DNA from: Candidatus Nezhaarchaeales archaeon
GTDB taxonomy: Archaea > Thermoproteota > Methanomethylicia > Nezhaarchaeales > WYZ-LMO8
DNA length: 64,000 nt
Direction: 5' to 3'
Assembly: GCA_038887515.1 (NCBI GenBank)
Contig: JAWAKK010000001.1
Coordinates: 96,001-160,000, forward strand
The position numbers were made by a program, and so were the translations under genes. The notes under the pieces were generated by a model. That model ran no database searches, was not told where the DNA came from, and saw only the letters and a list, made by a program, of their open reading frames with translations. This document shows, one piece after another, positions 1-25,200 of this stretch. The stretch's first letter is position 1. Each line of letters begins with the position of its first letter.

Positions 1-501
1 CTGGTATAAGGGATACAAGAGCTCTCGGTGTTCAATTACTACTTTTGCCGTCTCTACGTCCTTAACTAGTGATACAAGTCTTCCCCAGCTACCAACTACA
101 GGTTTTAGGATTGCTGGATAGCCTAATACGTCTAGTGCTTTTAGGGCACCGTCGCGGGTGAAGGCAACAAAGGTTTTTGGTGTCGGAATACCGGCTTTCG
201 TTAACGCTAACGATGTTAAAAGCTTATCGCCACATATAAACGTTGTAGAGAACGGATTTATGACAGGTACCCCAGTATTTTCGATAATTGCAGTCAGGTA
301 TAGGCTCCTGTAATGTCCAACGCACCTCTGAATAACTACATCTCCTTTAAGAACTTCGGGGTTTACATCGCCCTTCGTTATGTCTATGAAGGAGTCCTTT
401 ATGTCTACTAGGCTAACTTCTACTCCTAAATCTTCTCCAGCTCTTTGTAGAGCCTTCTCTTCAGCTCTGATCCTATCGTACGTTATCACTATCTTTACCA
501 A
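1..501 (-). CDS. lysX: RimK-family [LysW]-aminoadipate ligase LysX (runs off the window edge)
   Basis: Manual translation from TTG at 501: MVKIVITYDRIRAEEKAL...RCVGHYR...CGDKLLT...PAILKPVVGSWGRLV; directly follows lysW. Confidence 0.85.
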   Translation of the reverse strand, partial: MVKIVITYDRIRAEEKALQRAGEDLGVEVSLVDIKDSFIDITKGDVNPEVLKGDVVIQRCVGHYRSLYLTAIIENTGVPVINPFSTTFICGDKLLTSLALTKAGIPTPKTFVAFTRDGALKALDVLGYPAILKPVVGSWGRLVSLVKDVETAKVVIEHRELLYPLYQ

Positions 502-14165: not shown

Positions 14166-14258
14166 GCTTCATCACGTAAATGGCCCTATAATTACTAGCT
14201 TTCGTTCATAAATTAATTATGGTAACGTGTTGCATTATTTCAGTACGACAGCTATGTA

Positions 14259-15044
14259 TTAAAGGGGTGGTAGTAAAGCTTCTCCTGGTCTTATGGATTT
14301 AAGCAAGTTGAGAAGCTCTTGCTGACTAATGGCCTTAGATATTGCTAATGGTACACCTTCATTCTTCGCTATTATAACAGCTAATTTGTCTACAGTCTTA
14401 GCTCCGTGGAGTACTATCAGACCCGGCTTCAAACTACCTAAACCGGCTTGCATAGCTTTAAGTGCTACTAGAGGCGACCTTCCAGTACTAACTCTAACGA
14501 ATATTGCTGCTCTCTGGGAGGTTGAACCATAAAGTTTAAGGTAGTCACTTGATGGGACCTCTAAGACCAACTTAATGCTATCTACTACTGTGTAGCCGAG
14601 TAACGGTTTGAACTCTGTATCTTCACCTACTATGAGTTCGGCTTTTATATGTTTACAGAATTCTCCTAAGCTTATGGGTTCTACGAAGTCCCTTATATCA
14701 ATGATAGCTTCTCGTAATGCCTCAGATCCCGTGTATAATCTTCTTAATGGCTCTGTTATCCTTCCTCCTCTTTCATCATCTATCTTAATGAGGGCTGAAA
14801 CTACTTTCCTTACAAACCCTATACCAGGGGACTTCCTTCTCCCACTTTCGTAGTCTGATATAACAGAAGGCGAAACCTTCAAAAAGTGGGCTAACTCGGT
14901 TGTGGAGACCATAAACCTCTGGCGCCAGCTCCTAAGAGCCTGCCCTACGTCGTCTGAGAATATTATTTCGCCTGCTATCCTTACAGCTAGCTCCCGCTGA
15001 CTTGTTGTTAACTCAATTCCAGTCATTGCCGTCATTAAAACCAT
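14259..15044 (-). CDS. Predicted archaeal XRE-HTH transcriptional regulator (COG1709-like)
   Basis: IAGEI, SPSVISDYESGRRKSPG, GYTVVDS and VSTGRSP motifs. Confidence 0.85.
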   Translation of the reverse strand: MVLMTAMTGIELTTSQRELAVRIAGEIIFSDDVGQALRSWRQRFMVSTTELAHFLKVSPSVISDYESGRRKSPGIGFVRKVVSALIKIDDERGGRITEPLRRLYTGSEALREAIIDIRDFVEPISLGEFCKHIKAELIVGEDTEFKPLLGYTVVDSIKLVLEVPSSDYLKLYGSTSQRAAIFVRVSTGRSPLVALKAMQAGLGSLKPGLIVLHGAKTVDKLAVIIAKNEGVPLAISKAISQQELLNLLKSIRPGEALLPPL

Positions 15045-15093
15045 CTACGCAACACGTTTTTAGCTCTTCTCCTCTACGAAAAATTAGAAATTC

Positions 15094-15813
15094 ATGAAGA
15101 AGATCGAAGAAAAAGCGCGGGCCAAAATGAGGGACATCATCGAGACCTATGATGCGATAGCGGAGGGCTTCTCTAACACTCGTCGTTATCCTTGGATTGA
15201 GATAGTCCATCTACTTGGCGAAATATCGAATAAAACACTTTTGGACATTGGATGTGGAAATGGAAGGCACTTAGTAGAACTCGCTAAAGGAGCAAGCATA
15301 GCAGTAGGCATAGACTTGTCAAAGAAGCTAATTAAGATAGCTAAGACTCGAATATCTAGGCTAGGAGTTACGCATAAAGCAATGCTCGTCTTAGGCGACA
15401 TGCTCTTTATGCCCTTTAGACCTGAAAGCTTCGATTCCATCGCATGCATAGCGGTGATGCATCACGTGCCGACCAAAAATTTGAGACAGCTAGCTGTTTC
15501 AGAAATAGCTAGAGTTCTTAGGAGTGGCGGGCTAGCAGTCATATCGGCTTGGTACAGATGGCAGAAGAAATTTGTCTTTGATGTTCTAAAAAGCTTCTTC
15601 ATGAAGCTCGTGGGCGTAGTATTTGAATTTGGGGACACTTACATTTCTTGGAAGTCGAAGGGAAAGATATTCAAAAGGTTCTTCCACATATTTACAATAA
15701 GCGAGATGAAGGACTTAATAAATATCGAGGCCTTCGAATTTAAAGACTTAAAACTAGTTGCCATCGGGAGTAAGAGGTTAATGAACGTTGTAGCAGTAGT
15801 TGCTAAGCGTTAA
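15094..15813 (+). CDS. Class I SAM methyltransferase, Trm9/ALKBH8-like
   Basis: YDAIAEGFSNTRRYPW, DIGCGNGR and IAVMHH...R...EIARVLRSGG. Confidence 0.75.
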   Translation: MKKIEEKARAKMRDIIETYDAIAEGFSNTRRYPWIEIVHLLGEISNKTLLDIGCGNGRHLVELAKGASIAVGIDLSKKLIKIAKTRISRLGVTHKAMLVLGDMLFMPFRPESFDSIACIAVMHHVPTKNLRQLAVSEIARVLRSGGLAVISAWYRWQKKFVFDVLKSFFMKLVGVVFEFGDTYISWKSKGKIFKRFFHIFTISEMKDLINIEAFEFKDLKLVAIGSKRLMNVVAVVAKR

Positions 15814-15845
15814 CGCTAATACTAACTTCTTCGAAATATCACTTT

Positions 15846-16502
15846 GTGAGCAATATGTCTATAACAATAGCTTGGCATGGGCACGCCTGCTTTGAAATTA
15901 AAAACCACGTAACGATAGTGGTAGACCCTCATGATGGTACATCCATTGGGATAAAACCCCCGTCGGCTAAGGCTGACTTAGTCTTGATATCTCATAAACA
16001 CTTCGATCATGCTAATGGCTTAATGTTTGTCAAGAAAAATGGCACCGTAGTAATAGATAAGCCGGGTAATTATGAAGTCAAGGGAGTGAAAGTGGTGGGG
16101 ATACCCACCTATCACGATGAATGTCGAGGAGCTAAACGTGGATTAAATACAGTTTACCTCTTTGAATATGATGAAGTTAGGTTCTGTCATTTAGGCGACT
16201 TGGGGCATGTGTTAAGTGAAGATCAAGCCCGTTTCTTAAGACCAGTAGACGTCCTCATGATTCCTGTCGGAGGAACCTTTACTATAGACGCAAAGCAAGC
16301 TAATGAAATTATGAACTTACTATCACCGAGAATAGCAATACCGATGCACTATAAGACGCCTGGACTAAATCTACCGATAGTTGGCGTTGAAGGTTTTATT
16401 GCTGGAAAGACGAATGTAGAACGCTCACAGTCAAATACATACAGGGTATCTAAAGAGACTCTGCCTAGTAAGTTAAAAATAGTTGTGTTAAGTCCACTGT
16501 AA
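15846..16502 (+). CDS. MBL-fold metallo-hydrolase
   Basis: GHACF, SHKHFDH, HLGDLG, IPVGG and IPMHY motifs. Confidence 0.9.
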   Translation: MSNMSITIAWHGHACFEIKNHVTIVVDPHDGTSIGIKPPSAKADLVLISHKHFDHANGLMFVKKNGTVVIDKPGNYEVKGVKVVGIPTYHDECRGAKRGLNTVYLFEYDEVRFCHLGDLGHVLSEDQARFLRPVDVLMIPVGGTFTIDAKQANEIMNLLSPRIAIPMHYKTPGLNLPIVGVEGFIAGKTNVERSQSNTYRVSKETLPSKLKIVVLSPL

Positions 16503-16643
16503 CCGACTTAAGTCTCTTATGTGATGTGACTCTTAGGGGATCTAGTGCATGGTCTTTGGGCTAACGTGTTTCATAAAGGTTGCCACAAGAATTTCTCGAA
16601 CCTCAATAACCGAAGATGGTTCAGAAGAAGTGCGAGTTGATGC

Positions 16644-16961
16644 ATGTTGTCGACCATAATAATATCGCCTGAATTCGATATAATACTCGATCCTGAAAAT
16701 ATGGTGATAGGTGAAGCTAGAAGCGACTTAGCTTTACTAGACGTTACGCCCATAGACAAGAAGATTGGCGAGCTCAATGACATAATAGATGTACTGTTCT
16801 GGTCTTTCGATCCAAAAGTATCGACTTCAACGACGCCTAGATCCGGGAAAAGGGGGTTGCCGTTAAAGGTTTACTACTTGCCAGACATGATACTAGGCTT
16901 CCTCGTAGGCTTAGCGCTGTTCAGCCTAATAATAGCGATGCACTTTACATTAACTCTATGA
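16644..16961 (+). CDS. mtrB: Tetrahydromethanopterin S-methyltransferase subunit B
   Basis: ISPEFDIILDP...IGE, I..LNDIIDVL..SFDP, C-terminal TM helix GFLVGL; directly before mtrA. Confidence 0.8.
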   Translation: MLSTIIISPEFDIILDPENMVIGEARSDLALLDVTPIDKKIGELNDIIDVLFWSFDPKVSTSTTPRSGKRGLPLKVYYLPDMILGFLVGLALFSLIIAMHFTLTL

Positions 16962-16994
16962 ATGCTAACGCAAAAATATTAAAGAGTGAGGTAA

Positions 16995-17768
16995 ATGTTC
17001 GTGAGAACCCTTCAAAAAATGAAAGTTGAGCTGGCACCAAATTGGCCCGTAGCGGTTGGAGACTACGTAGTTGGAGATCCTAAAGGTTGTGTTGCGATAT
17101 GTACGTTGGGGTCTGAAGGGATATGCTCATTCCTAGTAAAAATGCCGGGAGTCGCAATAGTTGGACCTTGTAAAACTGAGAACGTAGGTTTAGAGAAAAT
17201 AATATTAAACGTAATATCAAATCCAAACATTAGGTTTTTAATAGTATGCGGAATCGAAGTTACAGGCCACTTACCAGGTCTCTCCTTTAAAGCTCTTTAC
17301 GAAAACGGCATAGAGCCGGCAACTAAGAGAATCAAGGAAGCACCTGGAGCAATACCTTATATAGAACACTTGACCGTTGAAGCTGTGGAACGTTTTCAAA
17401 AACAGGTACAATTTATAGACATGATAGGGGTTGAAGACATAAACATAATTAAAGCTAAAGTCGAAGAACTCGTAACACAAGATCCAGGAGCTTACCCTGA
17501 GCCTCCATTTATCGTAGATATCGAGAAAAAAGAGACGAGAGAAACCACTATACCTAAGTTAATTTTGGTTCCATCAATCACACCATCACTGTCAACCCTA
17601 TCGGCATTAATGAGTGACGTAAAGCGTAGAGTGCAATTAATAGAAAGAGAAAGGAAAATTATAACTGCTGTAGAAGTTACAAGAGCTTGGAGTATAGTAG
17701 CGGGGATATTACTTGCCTTCTTGCTCTTTGGTCTACTAGCACTTGTAGTGATTTTAGGAGGAACATAA
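16995..17768 (+). CDS. mtrA: MtrA corrinoid-binding domain fused to an MtrF-like stalk/TM
   Basis: WP..GDY.VGDP, CTLGS, KTENVGLEK, SNPNIRF, EVTGH (Co ligand His), GAIPYIE; C-terminal DVKRRVQLIER...TR...GILLAFLL is MtrF-like. Confidence 0.93.
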   Translation: MFVRTLQKMKVELAPNWPVAVGDYVVGDPKGCVAICTLGSEGICSFLVKMPGVAIVGPCKTENVGLEKIILNVISNPNIRFLIVCGIEVTGHLPGLSFKALYENGIEPATKRIKEAPGAIPYIEHLTVEAVERFQKQVQFIDMIGVEDINIIKAKVEELVTQDPGAYPEPPFIVDIEKKETRETTIPKLILVPSITPSLSTLSALMSDVKRRVQLIERERKIITAVEVTRAWSIVAGILLAFLLFGLLALVVILGGT

Positions 17769-17769
17769 A

Positions 17770-17973
17770 GTGTCTTCCAAAAGAACCAAGGAAGCGTATA
17801 CAGCTGAAATTGCTTACATCGAAGCTAGAATTAACGATATAACGACGAGAATACAAATGATCGGAGAGAAAGGTAGGTTCACCACGGGGTTTTATCGGGG
17901 CTTCTTTAAAGGCTTCATAATTGGATTGATGGTATCGATAGTGTTACTAACATCAATATTGATAGTTATGTGA
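17770..17973 (+). CDS. Small single-TM Mtr stalk subunit (sits at the mtrF position; sequence resembles the MtrA C-terminal anchor)
   Basis: EIAYIEARINDITTRIQMIG...G...KGFIIGL; located between mtrA and mtrG. Confidence 0.7.
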   Translation: MSSKRTKEAYTAEIAYIEARINDITTRIQMIGEKGRFTTGFYRGFFKGFIIGLMVSIVLLTSILIVM

Positions 17974-17988
17974 GAGGCGCAAAGTAAT

Positions 17989-18216
17989 ATGTCGCTCGAT
18001 GAGGAAGAATTTAGAGTACCGACAGTTATAGCTCCACCGGAAATCGTTCAACTACATTCAAAGCTTAATGCAATAAACGAAAAAGTGAACTTCACGCTCA
18101 GCGAAGTAGCTCACAAAGAAGGTCTAAGAATGGGTAGCTATATAGGTTTCCTTTACGGTTTCTTAACAGGCTCTATGATAATGTTAGTACTTAAGTTTGT
18201 ACTTAGGATCCTGTGA
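17989..18216 (+). CDS. mtrG: Mtr subunit G
   Basis: VPTV...KLNAINEKVNFTLSE...G...IGFLYG. Confidence 0.85.
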   Translation: MSLDEEEFRVPTVIAPPEIVQLHSKLNAINEKVNFTLSEVAHKEGLRMGSYIGFLYGFLTGSMIMLVLKFVLRIL

Positions 18217-18257
18217 GGAGCTGAAATTAGCGTTTTATAGACCCAGCGATGAACTAT

Positions 18258-19763
18258 TCATTCCTCGCATTCGTTTCTTGTCGAACTTTCATTACTACGC
18301 TTAACTTTACGCTCCAGTTTTTGAAACTTTGCCCTTAAGCTCAATATACAGCCCATCCCCCTATTACCTCCTAGAGGATTCTGCGGCGTCCCCAAGGAAT
18401 GTAAACACCTAGCCATTACATTAGCCCCCAAGGCTAAGCCGTCTTCAACGAACACGACTCTTCTATTGACGTCGTCGTTAAATACGCCAAGCTCGTCAAC
18501 ATACTTAAGTATTAAGTAAGGCTTTAGACCTGTTATTCCTGCCCTTCCAGTTATACCTATGGTGTAATTATCATTTATTAAACCGTGCGCTATTAAGGTC
18601 TCCAGGACTCTTTTAGCTATAAGAGCTGAAGTATAATCCAGTATCGCTAAGAGCGTCTTGCCTCCATATTGACTGTAGAACTCGTGACCTAGTGACCGCA
18701 ATTTAGGTAAGTAACTTCCATTATCCCCTACATCGCATCCTATCAGTAATACTCCTTGCTCGCACGCTAACTTTGCATTAATGGGTATCATGCCCACGCG
18801 TACTGCACTTGGAAGGACTTTCCTTACGTCTATGTACTTATGCACTTCATAAGCTAATTCCTCGCACTTCTCAGCATCTATGACGTCTTTGGTCTTAATG
18901 TACTCTGAAAACTCTAAAGCTGACGTCGCGACTTCGGTACCTTGAATTAAAGCATCACAAATAGCTCCAGAGAGACCACATATACTGCCTATAGTCTTGG
19001 CGTAAGGAAGTTCATCATTTGTAACCCTTCCTTTAAAGGTAGTCCCAAAATCCATGGATATTATAGGGTTTCTACAATCTACATCAGTCCACTTAGCTCC
19101 AACCTTTATACCGGCAGTCGAAAGCTCAGCTTCCATCTCATTTGCCATTATCTCACCTCCACTCTTGGGAGGTAGGCAGCCAGCAATCGCTCCATCAAAA
19201 AAGACTACATCAAGTTTTGAATATTCTTTTAAATCATCTGGAAGAGAGTTCTTAGATAAAGGTGCTATCATTTTTGACGGACTTATACCAGCTGCCAGAC
19301 AACCCTTGGCTAATGCCCTTATAACCGAGCCGACTTCTTCTGGTGTTCCAAAGCTAGCGCTAATACCTGTTGATTGCACTACAAAATGTAAATCTTTATC
19401 CCTATCTAGTCCAGCTTCCCTAACGCAAGATACGAGGAAATCCCTGATAAACTCGATTACTGCCATTTCGCTTAGCATCTTCCCCCACAAGGTATAGCCT
19501 AGTAAGCGCTCGTTGGGGTGGGGTCTTCTGATGTTTCGTGTTAGTTCGACTGCCCTCCTTACTAGGTAAATTTTTCCAGTTTTTAAATCAGTAGTAGTTA
19601 TGATGCACTTAGTAGTGGTGTTGCCAAGCTCAATTGATGCGACAGTGAAGAGTTGCCCAGTCCCTCTAGTTGTTACTTTCACAGGATCAATGAACATGCC
19701 GCGCGCAATTCTAGGGTTATACTTGCCGATTTTACCCTTTCTCTTTAAAAATTTAAGCCTCAT
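18258..19763 (-). CDS. Methanogenesis marker protein 14 (DUF2114)
   Basis: VASIELGNTTTKCI, ANEMEAEL.TAGIK, SMDFGTT, EDGLALGA.VMARC..SLGTP.NPLGG; follows mtrH. Confidence 0.88.
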   Translation of the reverse strand: MRLKFLKRKGKIGKYNPRIARGMFIDPVKVTTRGTGQLFTVASIELGNTTTKCIITTTDLKTGKIYLVRRAVELTRNIRRPHPNERLLGYTLWGKMLSEMAVIEFIRDFLVSCVREAGLDRDKDLHFVVQSTGISASFGTPEEVGSVIRALAKGCLAAGISPSKMIAPLSKNSLPDDLKEYSKLDVVFFDGAIAGCLPPKSGGEIMANEMEAELSTAGIKVGAKWTDVDCRNPIISMDFGTTFKGRVTNDELPYAKTIGSICGLSGAICDALIQGTEVATSALEFSEYIKTKDVIDAEKCEELAYEVHKYIDVRKVLPSAVRVGMIPINAKLACEQGVLLIGCDVGDNGSYLPKLRSLGHEFYSQYGGKTLLAILDYTSALIAKRVLETLIAHGLINDNYTIGITGRAGITGLKPYLILKYVDELGVFNDDVNRRVVFVEDGLALGANVMARCLHSLGTPQNPLGGNRGMGCILSLRAKFQKLERKVKRSNESSTRNECEE

Positions 19764-19767
19764 AGTT

Positions 19768-20715
19768 TTAGCCTACAAGTCTTCGATATGGATGATCTTC
19801 ACTTATGGGGAGTCCAAGCTCAAGGTGGGTTGTATCCGTCACAATAGCGTCAGCCATGGCTACTACTGGAAAAACGAATTCTGCATTCTCTATGGGTCCA
19901 TAGAGTACGAAGTTGCCACCGATAATTACTTGAAGGATGTTGCTAGCTATATCGCAGAATCTAAATATCTCTCTACCTCGGGGATGCTCTTTCTTAATTC
20001 TCTTAAGCCACGGCCAGGCCGATATAACGTTATGTAAACTGCTCCCTGTCGGGTAACCGAACTTTGACTTAATGACATACGTTGATGCTAGGGCAGCTCC
20101 TGCACCAGCTCCTAAAGTAGTTACTGCGACATCGATCAATGTAGCCTTGACTCCACACTCATTGGCAATATTAAGTAACCCATTTTTAACAACGCCTCCT
20201 CCGCTCGTTAGTATTGTAACCTTACCCCTTATCGAGGGGTCGGCCGGATTAAACGCCAAAATAACGCTATTAGGCATTTTTAGTTCTCTTAGAACATTAA
20301 ACTCTTCTTCAGTTATTGAAACGTTTATTGAGTTATATACGGCTTTATCGATAAGCCCAACCTCTTTGGCATATTTTGCGCCTTCAATCCTAACTCTAGG
20401 TTCTGTAGAATCTATTAGAAATGGAGATGGGGTGACTGATGCTACAAAATCTATGTACTTCTTCATTGCCTCGACGCTTTCGGAGAATATTTGGACCATG
20501 CAAGGGTTACCGGTTATATCGGACATTTCCTCTTGCTTCTTTATTAACGCCTCGGCTTTGTCTTTATCAAAAAGGCCTTTCCTATGGTCACTTACTATTT
20601 TATGTCCTCCATAAAATATTGTTCCAGCTAAGACCGTAGGGTTTTCGCCTGGTTGTCCTCCTATCTTAACTTTCCCTACTTGGTAAACGTACTGCTCTCT
20701 AGCGAATAGATATAT
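19768..20715 (-). CDS. mtrH: Mtr subunit H (methyl-H4MPT:corrinoid methyltransferase); frame extends 63 codons above the ORF-track ATG to a putative ATA start
   Basis: YLFAREQ...KIGGQPGENPTVLAGTIFY...DITGNP...FLIDST...YNSIN...HN..SAW.W...LYGPIENA; SD GGAGGTG 8 nt upstream of the ATA. Confidence 0.92.
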   Translation of the reverse strand: MYLFAREQYVYQVGKVKIGGQPGENPTVLAGTIFYGGHKIVSDHRKGLFDKDKAEALIKKQEEMSDITGNPCMVQIFSESVEAMKKYIDFVASVTPSPFLIDSTEPRVRIEGAKYAKEVGLIDKAVYNSINVSITEEEFNVLRELKMPNSVILAFNPADPSIRGKVTILTSGGGVVKNGLLNIANECGVKATLIDVAVTTLGAGAGAALASTYVIKSKFGYPTGSSLHNVISAWPWLKRIKKEHPRGREIFRFCDIASNILQVIIGGNFVLYGPIENAEFVFPVVAMADAIVTDTTHLELGLPISEDHPYRRLVG

Positions 20716-21100
20716 TGCAATTACACCTCCAACTAGACAACTTCACTTTTAAGATCCAAGTAACTCTTTAAGCTTTACGTGACTTAACAGTAAAGAATGA
20801 TTAGAATAATTGAAAATTAATTTAGAACACTAAGAAGCCACCTTTATCATAGGGGTCCTTCCAGTTAAGAGATTGTAAGGTTGGGAGATGTTATATTTAA
20901 ATTCGAAGTTACACTTCTAACAGATTCAGGTTAAGCGACGTTCCCGTCTAAATCTTGCCGAAGTCATGTAATCAAGGCAACTTTATGGCTTAAACCAAGG
21001 AGCATTGCCTGTCCCTAAATCGCTCTCGCCTTACGTTTATGGTTCCCCCGACAGTCTTATATACCTCTAACGTAAAAAGAATTGAGGGTTTTTACTAAAT

Positions 21101-22228
21101 ATGGTAGATGAGCTTAACGCGGCTCTAGTGCTAGAAGACGGCTCTATTTTCCTTGGAAGAGGGTTTGGCTTCCCAAAGAAAGTGATCGGAGAAGTTGTGT
21201 TCACTACAGGTATGGTGGGCTATCCAGAATCGATAACTGATCCATCGTATCGAGGCCAGATATTATGTTTTACTTATCCTCTAATTGGGAATTATGGAGT
21301 TCCAAACCCCAATATTAGAGATACTTGGGGACTACCATTACATTTTGAATCTGATAAACCTCAAGTACTAGGAATAATAATCCATGAACTATGCAATAGC
21401 CCTAGCCATTGGGCAAGCGTTAAGAGCCTTCACCAATGGTTGTACGAAGAAGGAATACCCGGAATGTATGGTATAGACACTAGAAAGTTAACTAAGAAGC
21501 TGAGAGTTAAGGGAGTGATGATGGGGGCCCTCGAAGTAAGTGAAGGCGAAGTAAACGTCGACAAGCTCTTTTCACTACTTGAAAGGGCACAAAGATATGA
21601 ACGGCTAGACTTAGTGGGCGAAGTCACAATAAAAGAGCCTATAGTTTATGATAATAGAGGGCCAACAGTTGTAGTAATAGATTGCGGCGTAAAATATGGA
21701 ATAATAAGGAACCTGTTGAGGAGAGGTTTGACGGTCGTAAGGTCACCTAGAGACTCTAGTGCCGATGACGTCTTAAAGTTCGAGCCTAAAGGAATTCTAG
21801 TAAGCAATGGTCCTGGGAACCCCGAAATTAATGTTAAAACTATCAACACAATAAGAGACCTCATAGAAGTAGGAATCCCCATGCTAGGGATATGCCTTGG
21901 AAACCAGATGATAGCTCTAGCCCTAGGAGCATCGACATTTAAAATGAAGTTTGGCCATAGAGGACAGAATAAGCCGTCCATAGACATGGAATCTGGAATA
22001 TGTTATGTAACTAGCCAAAACCATGGATTCGCCGTCCGCGAAGACACATTAAAAGAATCGGGCTTATCACTATGGTTCCTCAACGCTGATGACATGACCG
22101 TAGAGGGATTAAAGCATAGGAAAAAACCAGTAATTGCAGTTCAATTTCATCCAGAAGCGTCGCCCGGTCCCTATGATACCGAGTTCGTCTTTGACATGTT
22201 TGTTAACATCATGGGAGTTGAAAGCTGA
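21101..22228 (+). CDS. carA: Carbamoyl-phosphate synthase small subunit
   Basis: GEVVFTTGMVGY, SNGPG, GICLG and QFHPE motifs. Confidence 0.97.
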   Translation: MVDELNAALVLEDGSIFLGRGFGFPKKVIGEVVFTTGMVGYPESITDPSYRGQILCFTYPLIGNYGVPNPNIRDTWGLPLHFESDKPQVLGIIIHELCNSPSHWASVKSLHQWLYEEGIPGMYGIDTRKLTKKLRVKGVMMGALEVSEGEVNVDKLFSLLERAQRYERLDLVGEVTIKEPIVYDNRGPTVVVIDCGVKYGIIRNLLRRGLTVVRSPRDSSADDVLKFEPKGILVSNGPGNPEINVKTINTIRDLIEVGIPMLGICLGNQMIALALGASTFKMKFGHRGQNKPSIDMESGICYVTSQNHGFAVREDTLKESGLSLWFLNADDMTVEGLKHRKKPVIAVQFHPEASPGPYDTEFVFDMFVNIMGVES

Positions 22229-25200
22229 TGAGCAAAGAGACCGTTAAGAAGGTCTTAATACTAGGTTCAGGGGCAATAAAGATAGGTGAAGCAGGGGAAT
22301 TCGATTATAGCGGCTCTCAAGCTCTCAAAGCCGTTAGAGAGGAGGGCATTGAAACCGTCCTCGTGAATCCAAACATAGCCACGATACAAACAGACCCTAA
22401 GTTGGCTGGGAAGGTGTACTTAATCCCCGTCTTGCCGGATTTTGTGGCTGAAGTAATAGAAAAGGAGAGGCCTGACGGCATAATGTTGGGCTTTGGAGGC
22501 CAAACAGCTCTAAACTGTGGAGTTCAGCTGTACAATATGGGTGTATTGCAGAAATATGGAGTTAAAGTTTTGGGGACGTCTGTTGAAAGCATAAAGAAGT
22601 GTTCTGATAGACTCTTATTCAAAGAGACCATCGAGTCAGCCGGATTGCCGATGCCTTGTAGCAAGGCGGCTTATAGCATTGAGGAGGCCGTAGAGGTCGC
22701 AAAGGACATAGGCTACCCGGTGATGGTAAGGGTTGCTTATACTTTAGGTGGCAAAGCTTCCGGAATTGCGAGAAATGAGAAAGAGCTTGTGGAGATAGTT
22801 AGAAGAGGTATCGCTCACAGCTTAATAGGGCAAGTGTTGATTGAAGAGTGCATAGCTACGTGGAAGCAGATAGAGTACGAAGTTATGAGAGACAAGTACG
22901 GAGACAGCGTGACCGTATGTAACATGGAAAACATACTTGGCATGAAGGTTCACACAGGAGACAATATAGTGGTAGCGCCGTCTCAGACGATAACTAATAG
23001 GGAGTATCACATTTTGAGGATCGCCTCTATAAAGGCCGCTGAAACACTCCAGATAATAGGGGAATGTAATGTTCAATTGGCCTTAGACCCCACATCGGAA
23101 AAATTCTACATTATAGAGATGAACCCCCGACTATCTAGGAGTTCGGCGTTGGCATCTAAAGCTACTGGTTATCCTCTTGCCTACATGGCAGCGAAACTTG
23201 CCCTAGGCTATAGGCTTCATGAACTTATAAACAAAGTGACTGGAAAAACTACGGCTTGCTTCGAGCCAGCTTTAGATTACGTAGTTCTGAAGTTCCCGAG
23301 ATGGGACTTCCAGAAGTTCGAAGGGGTCGATAGAAGACTTGGAACACAGATGAAGTCTGTTGGAGAAGTAATGGCGATAGGACGTTGTTTTGAAGAAGCT
23401 CTTCAAAAGGCTATTAGGATGCTTGATATAGGGAAGCCAGGCCTGGTTGCAAGTAGCATAAGTGATCGAAACCTTCTAAGACAAAAACTTATCGAAATGA
23501 CGGACGAAATATTATTTGACGTGGCCGCAGCCCTTAAAGCAGGCATGACGGTAGAGGAAATACATGAATTATCTTCTATAGATCCATGGTTCATAGAGAA
23601 GATAAAGAACATAGTCGATATGGAGGAGAAGTTAAGATCGCTCAGAGGTAAGCAGCTTGATGAACTCATCGACATCATAAGAGAGGCTAAGAGACTAGGC
23701 TTCTCGGACAAACAGATAGCCATGTGCCTTGGTTTAACGGAAGACGATGTCAGGAACTTCAGGTACAAGAAGGGTTTGATCCCCGCAGTCAAGCAGATAG
23801 ATACGCTTGCAGCCGAGTGGCCTGCTCAAACAAACTATCTGTACGTGACTTATGGAGGAGAAGAAGACGACGTAGAATTTAAGAAAGACGTGAAAAAAGT
23901 CATAGTGTTAGGCGCGGGCACATATCGGATTGGTAGTTCTGTCGAATTCGATTGGTGTACCATGAACATGGTGTGGGCCCTTAAGGAAAGGGGATTAGAC
24001 GAGGTTATAGTAATAAATTGCAATCCTGAAACGGTGTCCACCGATTACGACATGAGTGATAAGCTATACTTTGAAGAACTGACCCTCGAAAGAGTGCTCG
24101 ACATATGCTATAAGGAGAACCCGTGGGGAGTAATCACGTGCGTTGGAGGACAAATACCGAACAACTTAGCTCCAAAACTCGAGAAACTCGGCATTAGAAT
24201 ACTCGGCACAGCTGGAGAGGATGTAGATAGAGCTGAGGATAGAGCTAAATTTAGTAAACTCTTAGACGAGCTTGGAATATCACAACCTCCATGGGCTAAG
24301 TTCGCCTCAATAGAAGAGGCCGAAGATTTTGCGCGGCGGGTTGGTTATCCCGTACTCGTTAGACCCTCTTATGTTCTAAGTGGCGCAGCTATGAGAGTTG
24401 CATGGACCCCTGAGCAGCTTAGGGAATTTCTAAGGAAAGCGACGAGCGTAAGCCAAGAACATCCAGTTGTGATAAGCAAGTTCATAGAAGACGCCATAGA
24501 GGTGGAGGTTGACGCCGTATCGGATGGTGAGACGACGGTCATAGGGGCAGTTATAGAGCACGTCGAGCGTGCAGGAGTTCATTCTGGAGATGCGACGATG
24601 GTGATACCACCTCAAAGGTTAAGTTCTAATATAATAAAGACAATAAAGGACTATACGAAACGAATAGCGAAGGCCCTTAAGATTAAGGGACCCTTCAACA
24701 TACAGTTCCTCGTTAAGGAAGGAAACGTCTACGTCATAGAGTGTAACTTGAGAGCTTCAAGGTCTATGCCCTTCACCTCAAAGGTTAAAGCTGTTAACTT
24801 AATGAAACTCGCCTCTTACGCTCTGGTTGGTGAGAAGATACCTTGGAAGGGGGACGAGGAACCTCCACCTTTAGCGGTAGGAGTAAAGGTACCACAATTC
24901 TCTTTCATGCAACTTGAAGGGGCGGACCCGGTATTAGGGGTTGAAATGCAATCAACTGGTGAAGTTGCATGCTTAGGCGAAACGTTTACAGAAGCTTTCT
25001 ACAAAGCTCTTCTCGCTGCTGGTTTTAAGATACCCGTTAGCGGAGGGAACATCCTAATAACCGTCGGTGGCGTAGAACTTAAGAAGAAAATACTCCCATT
25101 AGTCAAGTATTTTAGAGCTCTTGGCTTTAACATCCTCGCCACTGAACACACGGCTGACTTCTTAAGAGAGGAGGGCTTCAATGACGTGAAGGTATTGTAC

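Follow-up and report, generated by a model that had tools for sequence, protein, structure and literature searches.

In CO2-reducing methanogenesis energy is conserved at the Mtr step alone, and the locus described here raises the question of what is left of this complex, and for which use, once its pumping subunits are gone. The locus lies in a stretch of 64,000 nucleotides (in the following, the window) from a Candidatus Nezhaarchaeales archaeon (GenBank assembly GCA_038887515.1, contig JAWAKK010000001.1, positions 96,001 to 160,000 of the forward strand), in which mtrB, mtrA, mtrF, mtrG, the gene for methanogenesis marker 14 and mtrH stand together while mtrE, mtrD and mtrC (EDC) are missing. 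The host genome, designated G000, has a size of 1.29 Mb in 9 contigs and is 93.99% complete; the window is located on contig C1. Compared to the canonical Mtr(ABCDEFG)3-H of methanogens (PDB 8Q3V; PMC10998594), subunits A, B, F, G and H, the histidine ligand, the single-helix anchors and the N-terminal arm of MtrB are all retained in the host, whereas the MtrCDE globes, and with them the coenzyme M (CoM)-binding cavity and the Na+ path, are absent. Canonical methanogens use methyl-CoM via methyl-CoM reductase (MCR), which the host lacks as well.

Judged from its sequence, the retained module is probably a working, non-pumping, membrane-anchored methyl-tetrahydromethanopterin (methyl-H4MPT):cobamide methyltransferase. 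A preliminary description of the window had read it as a membrane-tethered methyl-H4MPT:corrinoid methyltransferase uncoupled from CoM and from Na+ pumping, and this reading is supported by the absence of EDC and by the selection acting on the retained genes. The pattern itself cannot be claimed as novel: since it has been in print from December 2025 (PMC12700198, section 8), an Mtr without MtrCDE is already known.

Absence of mtrEDC and Anatomy of the Deletions

The mtr locus (16644-20715) is arranged as mtrB-mtrA-mtrF-mtrG on the + strand, with marker 14 and mtrH next to them on the - strand. The locus and its left edge comprise the following features, given in window coordinates:

15846..16502, + strand: MBL-fold (metallo-beta-lactamase-fold) hydrolase, PF13483, E 2e-48; conserved gene on the upstream side of the mtr operon, bordering the deletion on its left
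16503..16643: intergenic junction of 141 nt, where mtrE, mtrD and mtrC are missing
16644..16961, + strand: mtrB, 105 aa, PF05440 (E 2.9e-11), TIGR04166
16995..17768, + strand: mtrA, 257 aa, PF04208 (E 4e-66); cobamide-binding soluble domain, linker and MtrF-like C-terminal membrane helix
17770..17973, + strand: mtrF, 67 aa, GTG start, PF09472 (23.7 bits, cut-off 22), NF009776; also matches the TIGR01111 C-terminus
17989..18216, + strand: mtrG, 75 aa, PF04210 (52 bits), TIGR01149 (52.1 bits, cut-off 50.65)
18258..19763, - strand: marker 14 (DUF2114), 501 aa, TIGR03285 (566.8 bits, cut-off 274), full length
19768..20715, - strand: mtrH, ~316 aa, PF02007 positions 1-294 (418.7 bits, full frame), TIGR01114 (322 bits, cut-off 271, ATG-trimmed form)

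For comparison, family profile searches in 41 relatives revealed MtrA in 12, MtrE in 5 and McrA in 15 genomes. All seven genomes of the host's genus carry MtrA (7/7), and within it MtrE and McrA occur only in G005 and G006. The EDC-less congeners are G000-G004, of which G001-G004 are four separate assemblies besides the host; full Mtr is represented by G005 and G006 from the host's genus, by G009 from another genus and by G017 from another family. G006 is WYZ-LMO8 (contig QNVF01000002.1), which shares the genus of the host and has a syntenic mtr locus. Three further families of the set, f2, f3 and f5, presumably correspond to Jinzhaarchaeceae, Muzhaarchaeceae and Methanomethylicaceae, respectively, to which they were assigned by matching gene patterns. 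In a phylum sample of 401 genomes MtrG was found in 11, and MtrG without MtrE was found only in G000-G004.

Profile searches for MtrE (PF04206), MtrD (PF04207) and MtrC (PF04211) gave no match in the host genome (94% complete), and the methanogen controls matched. Similarly, three G005 open reading frames (ORFs) located between MBL and mtrB found nothing at E<=1e-3 when used as tblastn queries against the whole host genome; a hidden Markov model (HMM) identifies the first of these as MtrE, and the second and third were assigned to MtrD and MtrC from their order and sequence only. The preliminary description had made its reading depend on EDC being absent throughout the genome, and within the limits of a 94%-complete genome this is the case, the same gap being present in four congener assemblies. 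The possibility it had raised of an operon split with mtrEDC elsewhere in the genome was borne out neither by HMM nor by tblastn.

In G005, G006 and G009 the gene order is S-adenosylmethionine (SAM)-methyltransferase, MBL, a 2.72 kb mtrE-D-C interval, mtrB-A-F-G, marker 14 and mtrH on the opposite strand, and carA. G000-G004 show the same order, but the mtrEDC interval is replaced by a short spacer: between the tblastn matches to MBL and MtrB there are 145 nt in G000 and 229-237 nt in G001-G004, compared to 2721-2723 nt in G005, G006 and G009. Because the MBL gene lies directly upstream of mtrE in these full-Mtr relatives, it is the ancestral neighbour of the operon and not a substitute, which corrects the earlier view of an "unrelated" MBL hydrolase sitting in place of mtrEDC. 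Local alignment of the intergenic halves of G000-G004 to the 2.7-kb interval of G005/G006/G009 yielded no mtrEDC remnant at the junction (z -1.2 to 2.8 against shuffles). Only the last ~20-30 nt before mtrB are alike by eye between EDC-less and full-Mtr genomes.

The loss of MCR has the same form. McrA (PF02249) gave no match in the host genome, and the methanogen controls matched. In G005 an mcr island (L046:155-19260) of ~18 kb with 21 ORFs is placed between two flank genes, and on host contig C3 these flank genes are 342 nt apart (G000:C3:34096-35298). Searched against the host, 19/21 of the island ORFs had no match and 2/21 had only paralog matches with 26-30% identity; six of the nine island ORFs that were scanned could be named, as McrA, McrC, Mmp3 and markers 5, 7 and 15. 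Both mtrEDC and the mcr island are cleanly missing as single blocks, and in either case the flanking genes are adjacent.

It is highly improbable that, owing to an operon split or to incomplete assembly, mtrEDC and mcr are hidden on a different contig or in the 6% of the genome that is unassembled. A completeness of 93.99% and a distribution over 9 contigs would leave room for this, but the mtrEDC site is contiguous and contains no N, and a Logan contig of 39,795 letters from a different assembler covers positions 14200-22300 with 0 differences (its run may be the source sample). The assembly break at ~16.5 kb considered in the preliminary description is not seen, as five assemblies share the junction and the window is free of N. 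The same short gap in the four other assemblies, the negative HMM and tblastn searches, the adjacency of the mcr-island flank genes on C3 and the relaxation of MtrB exactly where contact with a lost partner is expected (see below) argue against missing sequence as well. The absence of mtrEDC is thus a true, shared and clean deletion and not an artefact.

With regard to a single or a double loss of mtrEDC, a tree of seven flanking proteins gave a trichotomy of G000, (G005, G006) and (G001-G004). A tree of 14 locus proteins, whose alignment includes the Mtr genes themselves, separates all EDC-less genomes from the others by a branch with support 94/96, and in a tree of two independent markers, aEF-2 and RpoA1 (1,623 columns), the EDC-less genomes were grouped in 24% of the bootstrap trees. 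In G006 the N-terminal half of RpoA1 is matched twice, on separate contigs (L060 = G006:C17 and L069 = G006:C69), which suggests a strain mixture or some contamination in this assembly. At the other end of the locus, G005 carries a gene for an acyl-CoA dehydrogenase (388 aa, L021:14556-15722) between mtrH and carA that has no match in the host genome. The mtrH-carA spacer of G006 (L022) has the same length as that of G005, ~1.5 kb; in G000, G001 and G002 the corresponding spacer is only ~350-500 nt long.

The Retained Mtr Subunits

All six genes named in the preliminary description, i.e., mtrB, mtrA, a small stalk ORF, mtrG, marker 14 and mtrH, are present and open and match Pfam/NCBIfam families. 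MtrA is encoded in a single copy in the host genome. Its residues 13-250 align to residues 7-237 of M. marburgensis MtrA (8q3v_A; E 8e-57), and its His92, which is invariant in 16/16 aligned MtrA sequences, corresponds to His84 of that chain, the residue tied to cobalt in PMC10998594. MtrA, MtrB, MtrF and MtrG each end in a strongly hydrophobic window of 19 residues. In MtrA this is the membrane helix 234-252, with a mean Kyte-Doolittle hydropathy (KD) of 3.07, and the mean KD of MtrB, MtrF and MtrG is 1.9-2.9. MtrB consists of a conserved N-terminal arm, a diverged membrane-proximal segment of 30 residues and a C-terminal membrane helix (hydrophobic window 83-101, mean KD 2.41). The small stalk ORF is MtrF, which is, like MtrG, a single-helix stalk subunit; the membrane helices comprise residues 49-67 in MtrF, which is conserved in 8/8 genomes compared, and residues 54-72 in MtrG.

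MtrH belongs to the methyl-H4MPT-binding TIM-barrel methyltransferase family, and a second, divergent copy is encoded elsewhere in the host genome. The mtrH frame was correctly described as open, but it does not begin at the listed ATG at 20526: it runs past this position to the homologous start codon, which is an ATA at 20715. The homologous codon is ATG in G005, G006, G009 and G017 and GTG in G001 and G002. Because the 63 codons preceding the first ATG form an open frame that fits the MtrH profile, the start in the host is likely non-canonical, at the ATA or at an ATT at 20721. A Shine-Dalgarno-like motif, GGAGGTG, is placed at 20724-20730, 8 nt upstream of the ATA. Two boxes may, as far as can be told from sequence, serve as promoter elements upstream of mtrB and mtrH:

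16569-16579: TTTCATAAAGG box, A/T-rich and TATA-like, upstream of mtrB
20764..20776, - strand: AAAGCTTAAAGAG box, ~50 nt upstream of the mtrH start, read from sequence

The AAAGCTTAAAGAG box resembles a AAAGCTTAAATAA box upstream of mtrE that is common to full-Mtr relatives (L021, L022 and L023). All three may be archaeal promoter elements, in the case of AAAGCTTAAAGAG a B-recognition element (BRE)/TATA.

Selection on the Retained Genes

Pairwise dN/dS ratios (omega) were calculated with NG86, a simple estimator, and bootstrap limits; EDC-less pairs are the six pairs within G001-G004, with unsaturated dS of ~0.7-0.9. The omega of the stalk (B+A+F+G) is 0.15-0.21 (0.11-0.28) in EDC-less pairs compared to 0.062 (0.043-0.088) in the pair G005-G006, and that of MtrH and marker 14 taken together is 0.08-0.11 compared to 0.073, with marker 14 alone at 0.075-0.11. 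Neighbouring control genes show 0.11-0.17 in EDC-less pairs versus 0.125 in G005-G006, for which the control set consists of SAM_MT and MBL only (451 codons). Resolved by domain, omega is 0.076 for the soluble domain of MtrA and 0.096 for the N-arm of MtrB, and it is 0.16-0.47 for the stalk helices and membrane anchors, which are short segments with noisy values. Excluded as mapping artefacts were all G005 pairs for HTH261 (pN ~0.72), where the tblastn match of G005 extended upstream past a stop, and, due to the frameshifts described below, all marker 14 pairs that involve G003 (pN ~0.46).

The relaxation is confined to the stalk and above all to one segment of MtrB. In this 30-residue segment, identity to G005 amounts to 29/30 in G006, 28/30 in G009 and 18/30 in G017, but to 7-11/30 in all five EDC-less genomes (10/30 in the host), whereas the N-arm of MtrB in these EDC-less genomes is identical to G005 at 27-31/40 positions (31/40 in the host). 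In the structural work on canonical Mtr, membrane contacts of MtrE helices with MtrA, MtrB and MtrF were reported, MtrH was placed on the N-arm of MtrB in AlphaFold2 models, and the (ABFG)3 stalk was described as a distinct central unit (PMC10998594). Taken together with these contacts, the diverged segment next to the conserved N-arm fits the loss of the partner MtrE, with the interplay of MtrH, MtrA and MtrB apparently kept.

One alternative is that the six genes are a decaying relic, i.e., a functionless and transient stage toward the complete loss of Mtr. Sister families without any Mtr or with MtrA and MtrH only would favour this, and section 8 of PMC12700198 terms the MtrCDE-less state an "intermediate stage" of loss. 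However, the omega values of the stalk and of MtrH with marker 14 are, at dS 0.7-1.2, in the same range as those of neighbouring housekeeping genes although all members of the clade are EDC-less, the soluble domain of MtrA and the N-arm of MtrB are strongly constrained, and the recovered frames are open across G000-G004 except for marker 14 in G003 (in G003 and G004 mtrH lies beyond the contig ends). We consider a relic unlikely. The preliminary description had likewise preferred retained function, and dN/dS well below 1 in a clade that is already EDC-less, together with the open frames and the intact His92, backs this preference.

Several observations weigh against a working module, and the first three of them count at the same time in favour of a relic. 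The constraint on the stalk is relaxed about threefold relative to full Mtr, for which G005-G006 is the only pair at comparable distance, and branches are shared among the six EDC-less pairs. The ATA start codon of mtrH in the host could, judged by its sequence, lower the expression of MtrH. Marker 14 of G003 (L037:22-1038, G003:C42) contains two compensating frameshifts ~100 nt apart and near a contig end, which place three stops in its main frame; either sequencing or assembly is in error here, or the gene has recently been inactivated. Finally, the core methionine synthase, a candidate acceptor for methyl-MtrA tested by phylogenetic profile, is not MtrA-dependent in relatives, as detailed below. 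Two metatranscriptome runs of the same study gave 0 reads on the 8.1-kb stretch, with ~3% of each run sampled, which is too little to bear on expression.

Marker 14 as a Companion of Membrane-Type Mtr

There is almost no literature on DUF2114, i.e., methanogenesis marker 14. The protein was found in 10/41 relatives, which are exactly the ten MtrG-positive genomes, and in 0/31 of the others, including eleven MCR-positive Methanomethylicaceae-like genomes. In detail, it was not found in the 12 f5 genomes (McrA in 11/12), in G008, which has McrA without Mtr, and in G010 and G024, whose only Mtr subunits are MtrA and MtrH. Marker 14 thus follows membrane-type Mtr and not MCR. Homologs are also contained in Hecatellales records, and the Methanothermococcus loci examined show no adjacency of marker 14 and mtr.

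In the host, marker 14 is encoded downstream of mtrH on the same strand and is, as its structural model suggests, a putative ASKHA-fold (acetate and sugar kinase/Hsc70/actin-fold) ATPase, presumably co-transcribed with mtrH. An ESM Atlas model of exactly this protein (pTM 0.84) gave TM scores of 0.40-0.51 to FGGY, PanK-III, Ppx, EutA and DDR. Its nearest feature neighbours are EutA reactivases with scores of 0.81-0.83, a result rated as a lead only. Invariant motifs of marker 14, among them GNTTTK, DFGTT and GxTGRAG, resemble the phosphate and adenosine motifs of ASKHA proteins. No sequence or profile match was obtained in the PDB and no second Pfam family at E<=10, and hhalign returned a probability of 5% against the RACo-like protein of the host and of 1% against marker 15 of G005, both of which were taken as ASKHA proteins. 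As a hypothesis, marker 14 might serve to maintain the cobamide of MtrA.

Metabolic Context and Proposed Function

Mer scored above its cut-off in 5/5 genomes searched, and CdhC, a subunit of acetyl-CoA synthase (ACS), was found in 4/5, so that both synthesis and use of methyl-H4MPT are possible. ComA (PF02679) was detected in 0/5 genomes, the methanogenic congeners included, and is hence uninformative on CoM biosynthesis.

Gene content, deletions and selection pattern are as observed above; for the direction of methyl transfer, the assembly of a globe-free stalk and the part played by marker 14 we infer the following mechanism. One clean deletion would have removed mtrE, mtrD and mtrC, the membrane globes of CoM methylation and Na+ pumping, and another one the ~18 kb island with mcrABG, mcrC and the MCR-maturation markers. 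Methyl-H4MPT would still be supplied via Mer and the Wood-Ljungdahl pathway, and MtrH would accept its methyl group and transfer it to the cob(I)amide carried by the soluble part of MtrA, a subunit that would be held at the membrane by the helical MtrA/B/F/G stalk. The N-terminal arm of MtrB would still dock MtrH, and marker 14, a putative ATPase of the ASKHA type, would be retained as an accessory protein. The methyl-cobamide would then pass to, or derive from, a partner other than CoM. As MtrCDE are absent, neither CoM methylation nor Na+ pumping would occur and the module would be non-energy-conserving; by analogy with the canonical complex, Na+ translocation is expected to be absent without MtrCDE (PMC10998594).

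A more specific version of the proposed methyltransferase holds that methyl-MtrA is the donor for the core (folate-independent) methionine synthase and that MtrA and MtrH are kept for methionine synthesis. A Meth_synt_2 protein of 319 aa (in the host on contig C3) is encoded in 5/5 congeners searched, and Price et al. predict that MesA of methanogens takes the methyl group from MtrA (PMC7857596). The orthologs within family f1 are 58-70% identical, compared to 37-39% in f3, which is without Mtr. On the other hand, homologs were found in 37/41 relatives, including f3 with 4/4 (MtrA 0/4) and f5 with 12/12; since f3 is free of MtrA, the family works without MtrA elsewhere. With 108-109 bits versus a cut-off of 258, the protein is not a member of the NF002119 equivalog, which served as a proxy for the MesA described by Price et al. 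on the assumption that the two are equivalent. Moreover, given CdhC in the host, the corrinoid Fe-S protein is possibly an alternative donor. The link of methionine synthase to MtrA is thus possible but unsupported, and this version appears doubtful.

The reverse direction of transfer has to be considered as well. A substrate-specific methyltransferase would methylate MtrA, and MtrH would load H4MPT for oxidation or acetyl-CoA synthesis, i.e., for entry into the Wood-Ljungdahl pathway, as put forward as a general hypothesis for MtrAH remnants in PMC9635834. Corrinoid methyl transfer to H4MPT is indeed used elsewhere in the host, where a second, soluble corrinoid methyltransferase cluster lies outside the window (G000:C1:240375-245497 = L043:7375-12497). 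It comprises an MtrH-like protein (300 aa), a RACo/RamA-type activase (637 aa), a B12-binding corrinoid protein (221 aa) and a URO-D-type methyltransferase (444 aa), and it adjoins a B12-type ABC transporter (periplasmic-binding-protein/FecCD pair). The cluster is of the type of the four-component Mto/Mtg systems, in which an MtrH-family enzyme moves the methyl group between a corrinoid protein and a pterin; these systems use a soluble protein with a B12-binding domain and a RACo-type activase and are without the MtrA fold or a membrane anchor.

As this second cluster has its own corrinoid protein and MtrH paralog, it has no need of MtrA, and no methyltransferase gene is found in or next to the mtr locus. 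The cluster was also tried and rejected as a feature specific to the loss of EDC: the URO-D-type gene is patchy, occurring in 6/21 relatives that comprise EDC-less genomes as well as the full-Mtr genomes G006 and G009. The canonical complex runs downhill when methyl passes from methyl-H4MPT to MtrA, which was likewise counted against reversal. A module running in reverse is accordingly rated improbable, and somewhat more so than a relic.

The proposed methyltransferase can be taken further. In its most explicit form, Mtr(ABFG)3-H would be a stable and selected enzyme in which MtrA is charged from methyl-H4MPT and serves a non-CoM acceptor such as the core methionine synthase, and marker 14 would be an ATP-dependent ASKHA reactivase or loader of the MtrA cobamide. 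This full combination is speculative, and we give it a small chance, similar to that of the link to methionine synthase.

Relation to Known Mtr Variants

The host lineage is Nezhaarchaeota/Methanonezhaarchaeia, family WYZ-LMO8, and has departed from methanogenesis. In PMC12700198 (Sci Adv, December 2025), three species clusters of Methanonezhaarchaeceae without MtrCDE and MCR were reported in which the Wood-Ljungdahl branches are largely conserved. The host corresponds to this case in its family, in the loss of MCR, in the missing MtrCDE and in the retention of the other Mtr subunits and of the Wood-Ljungdahl pathway: it belongs to family WYZ-LMO8, shows the same absences, keeps the remaining Mtr subunits and encodes Mer and CdhC. 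There is no difference in kind; section 8 of PMC12700198 is confined to presence and absence and contains no deletion anatomy, selection analysis or marker 14. In the literature searched beyond this paper no other description of the MtrCDE-less state was found, and its supplements may list the host genome.

Soluble remnants consisting of MtrA and MtrH only were described in Thorarchaeia (PMC9635834) and in Jinzhaarchaeceae (PMC12700198). Like the host, these are non-methanogens that retain the two methyl-transfer subunits; unlike them, the host also retains the stalk subunits B, F and G, which are present and conserved, as well as marker 14, and so falls outside this class. G010, presumably a member of Jinzhaarchaeceae, has an MtrH-like gene with 30% identity to host MtrH beside MtrA only and is without MtrG and marker 14. 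In Bathyarchaeia o__B25 Mtr genes are, according to PMC9635834, kept without MCR as in the host, but MtrCDE are kept as well. G042, which we would guess to be a member of Bathyarchaeia, carries both MtrG and MtrE.

Implications

What is added here to the published pattern is the anatomy of the deletions, the selection data and the observation that marker 14 tracks membrane Mtr rather than MCR. The EDC-less state has persisted with its genes under purifying selection and is thus no fleeting intermediate. The lineage constitutes a natural dissection of Mtr, in which the pump and the CoM site are gone and the cobamide carrier, its loader and the membrane stalk are under selection, and the retained set shows which parts of Mtr have value outside methanogenesis. 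The co-occurrence of marker 14 with Mtr is a testable lead for a little-studied protein family. If a stable Mtr(ABFG)3-H with a marker 14 factor exists, marker 14 would be functional in all Mtr-containing methanogens, and the lineage would offer a natural Mtr mutant in which the first half-reaction can be dissected.

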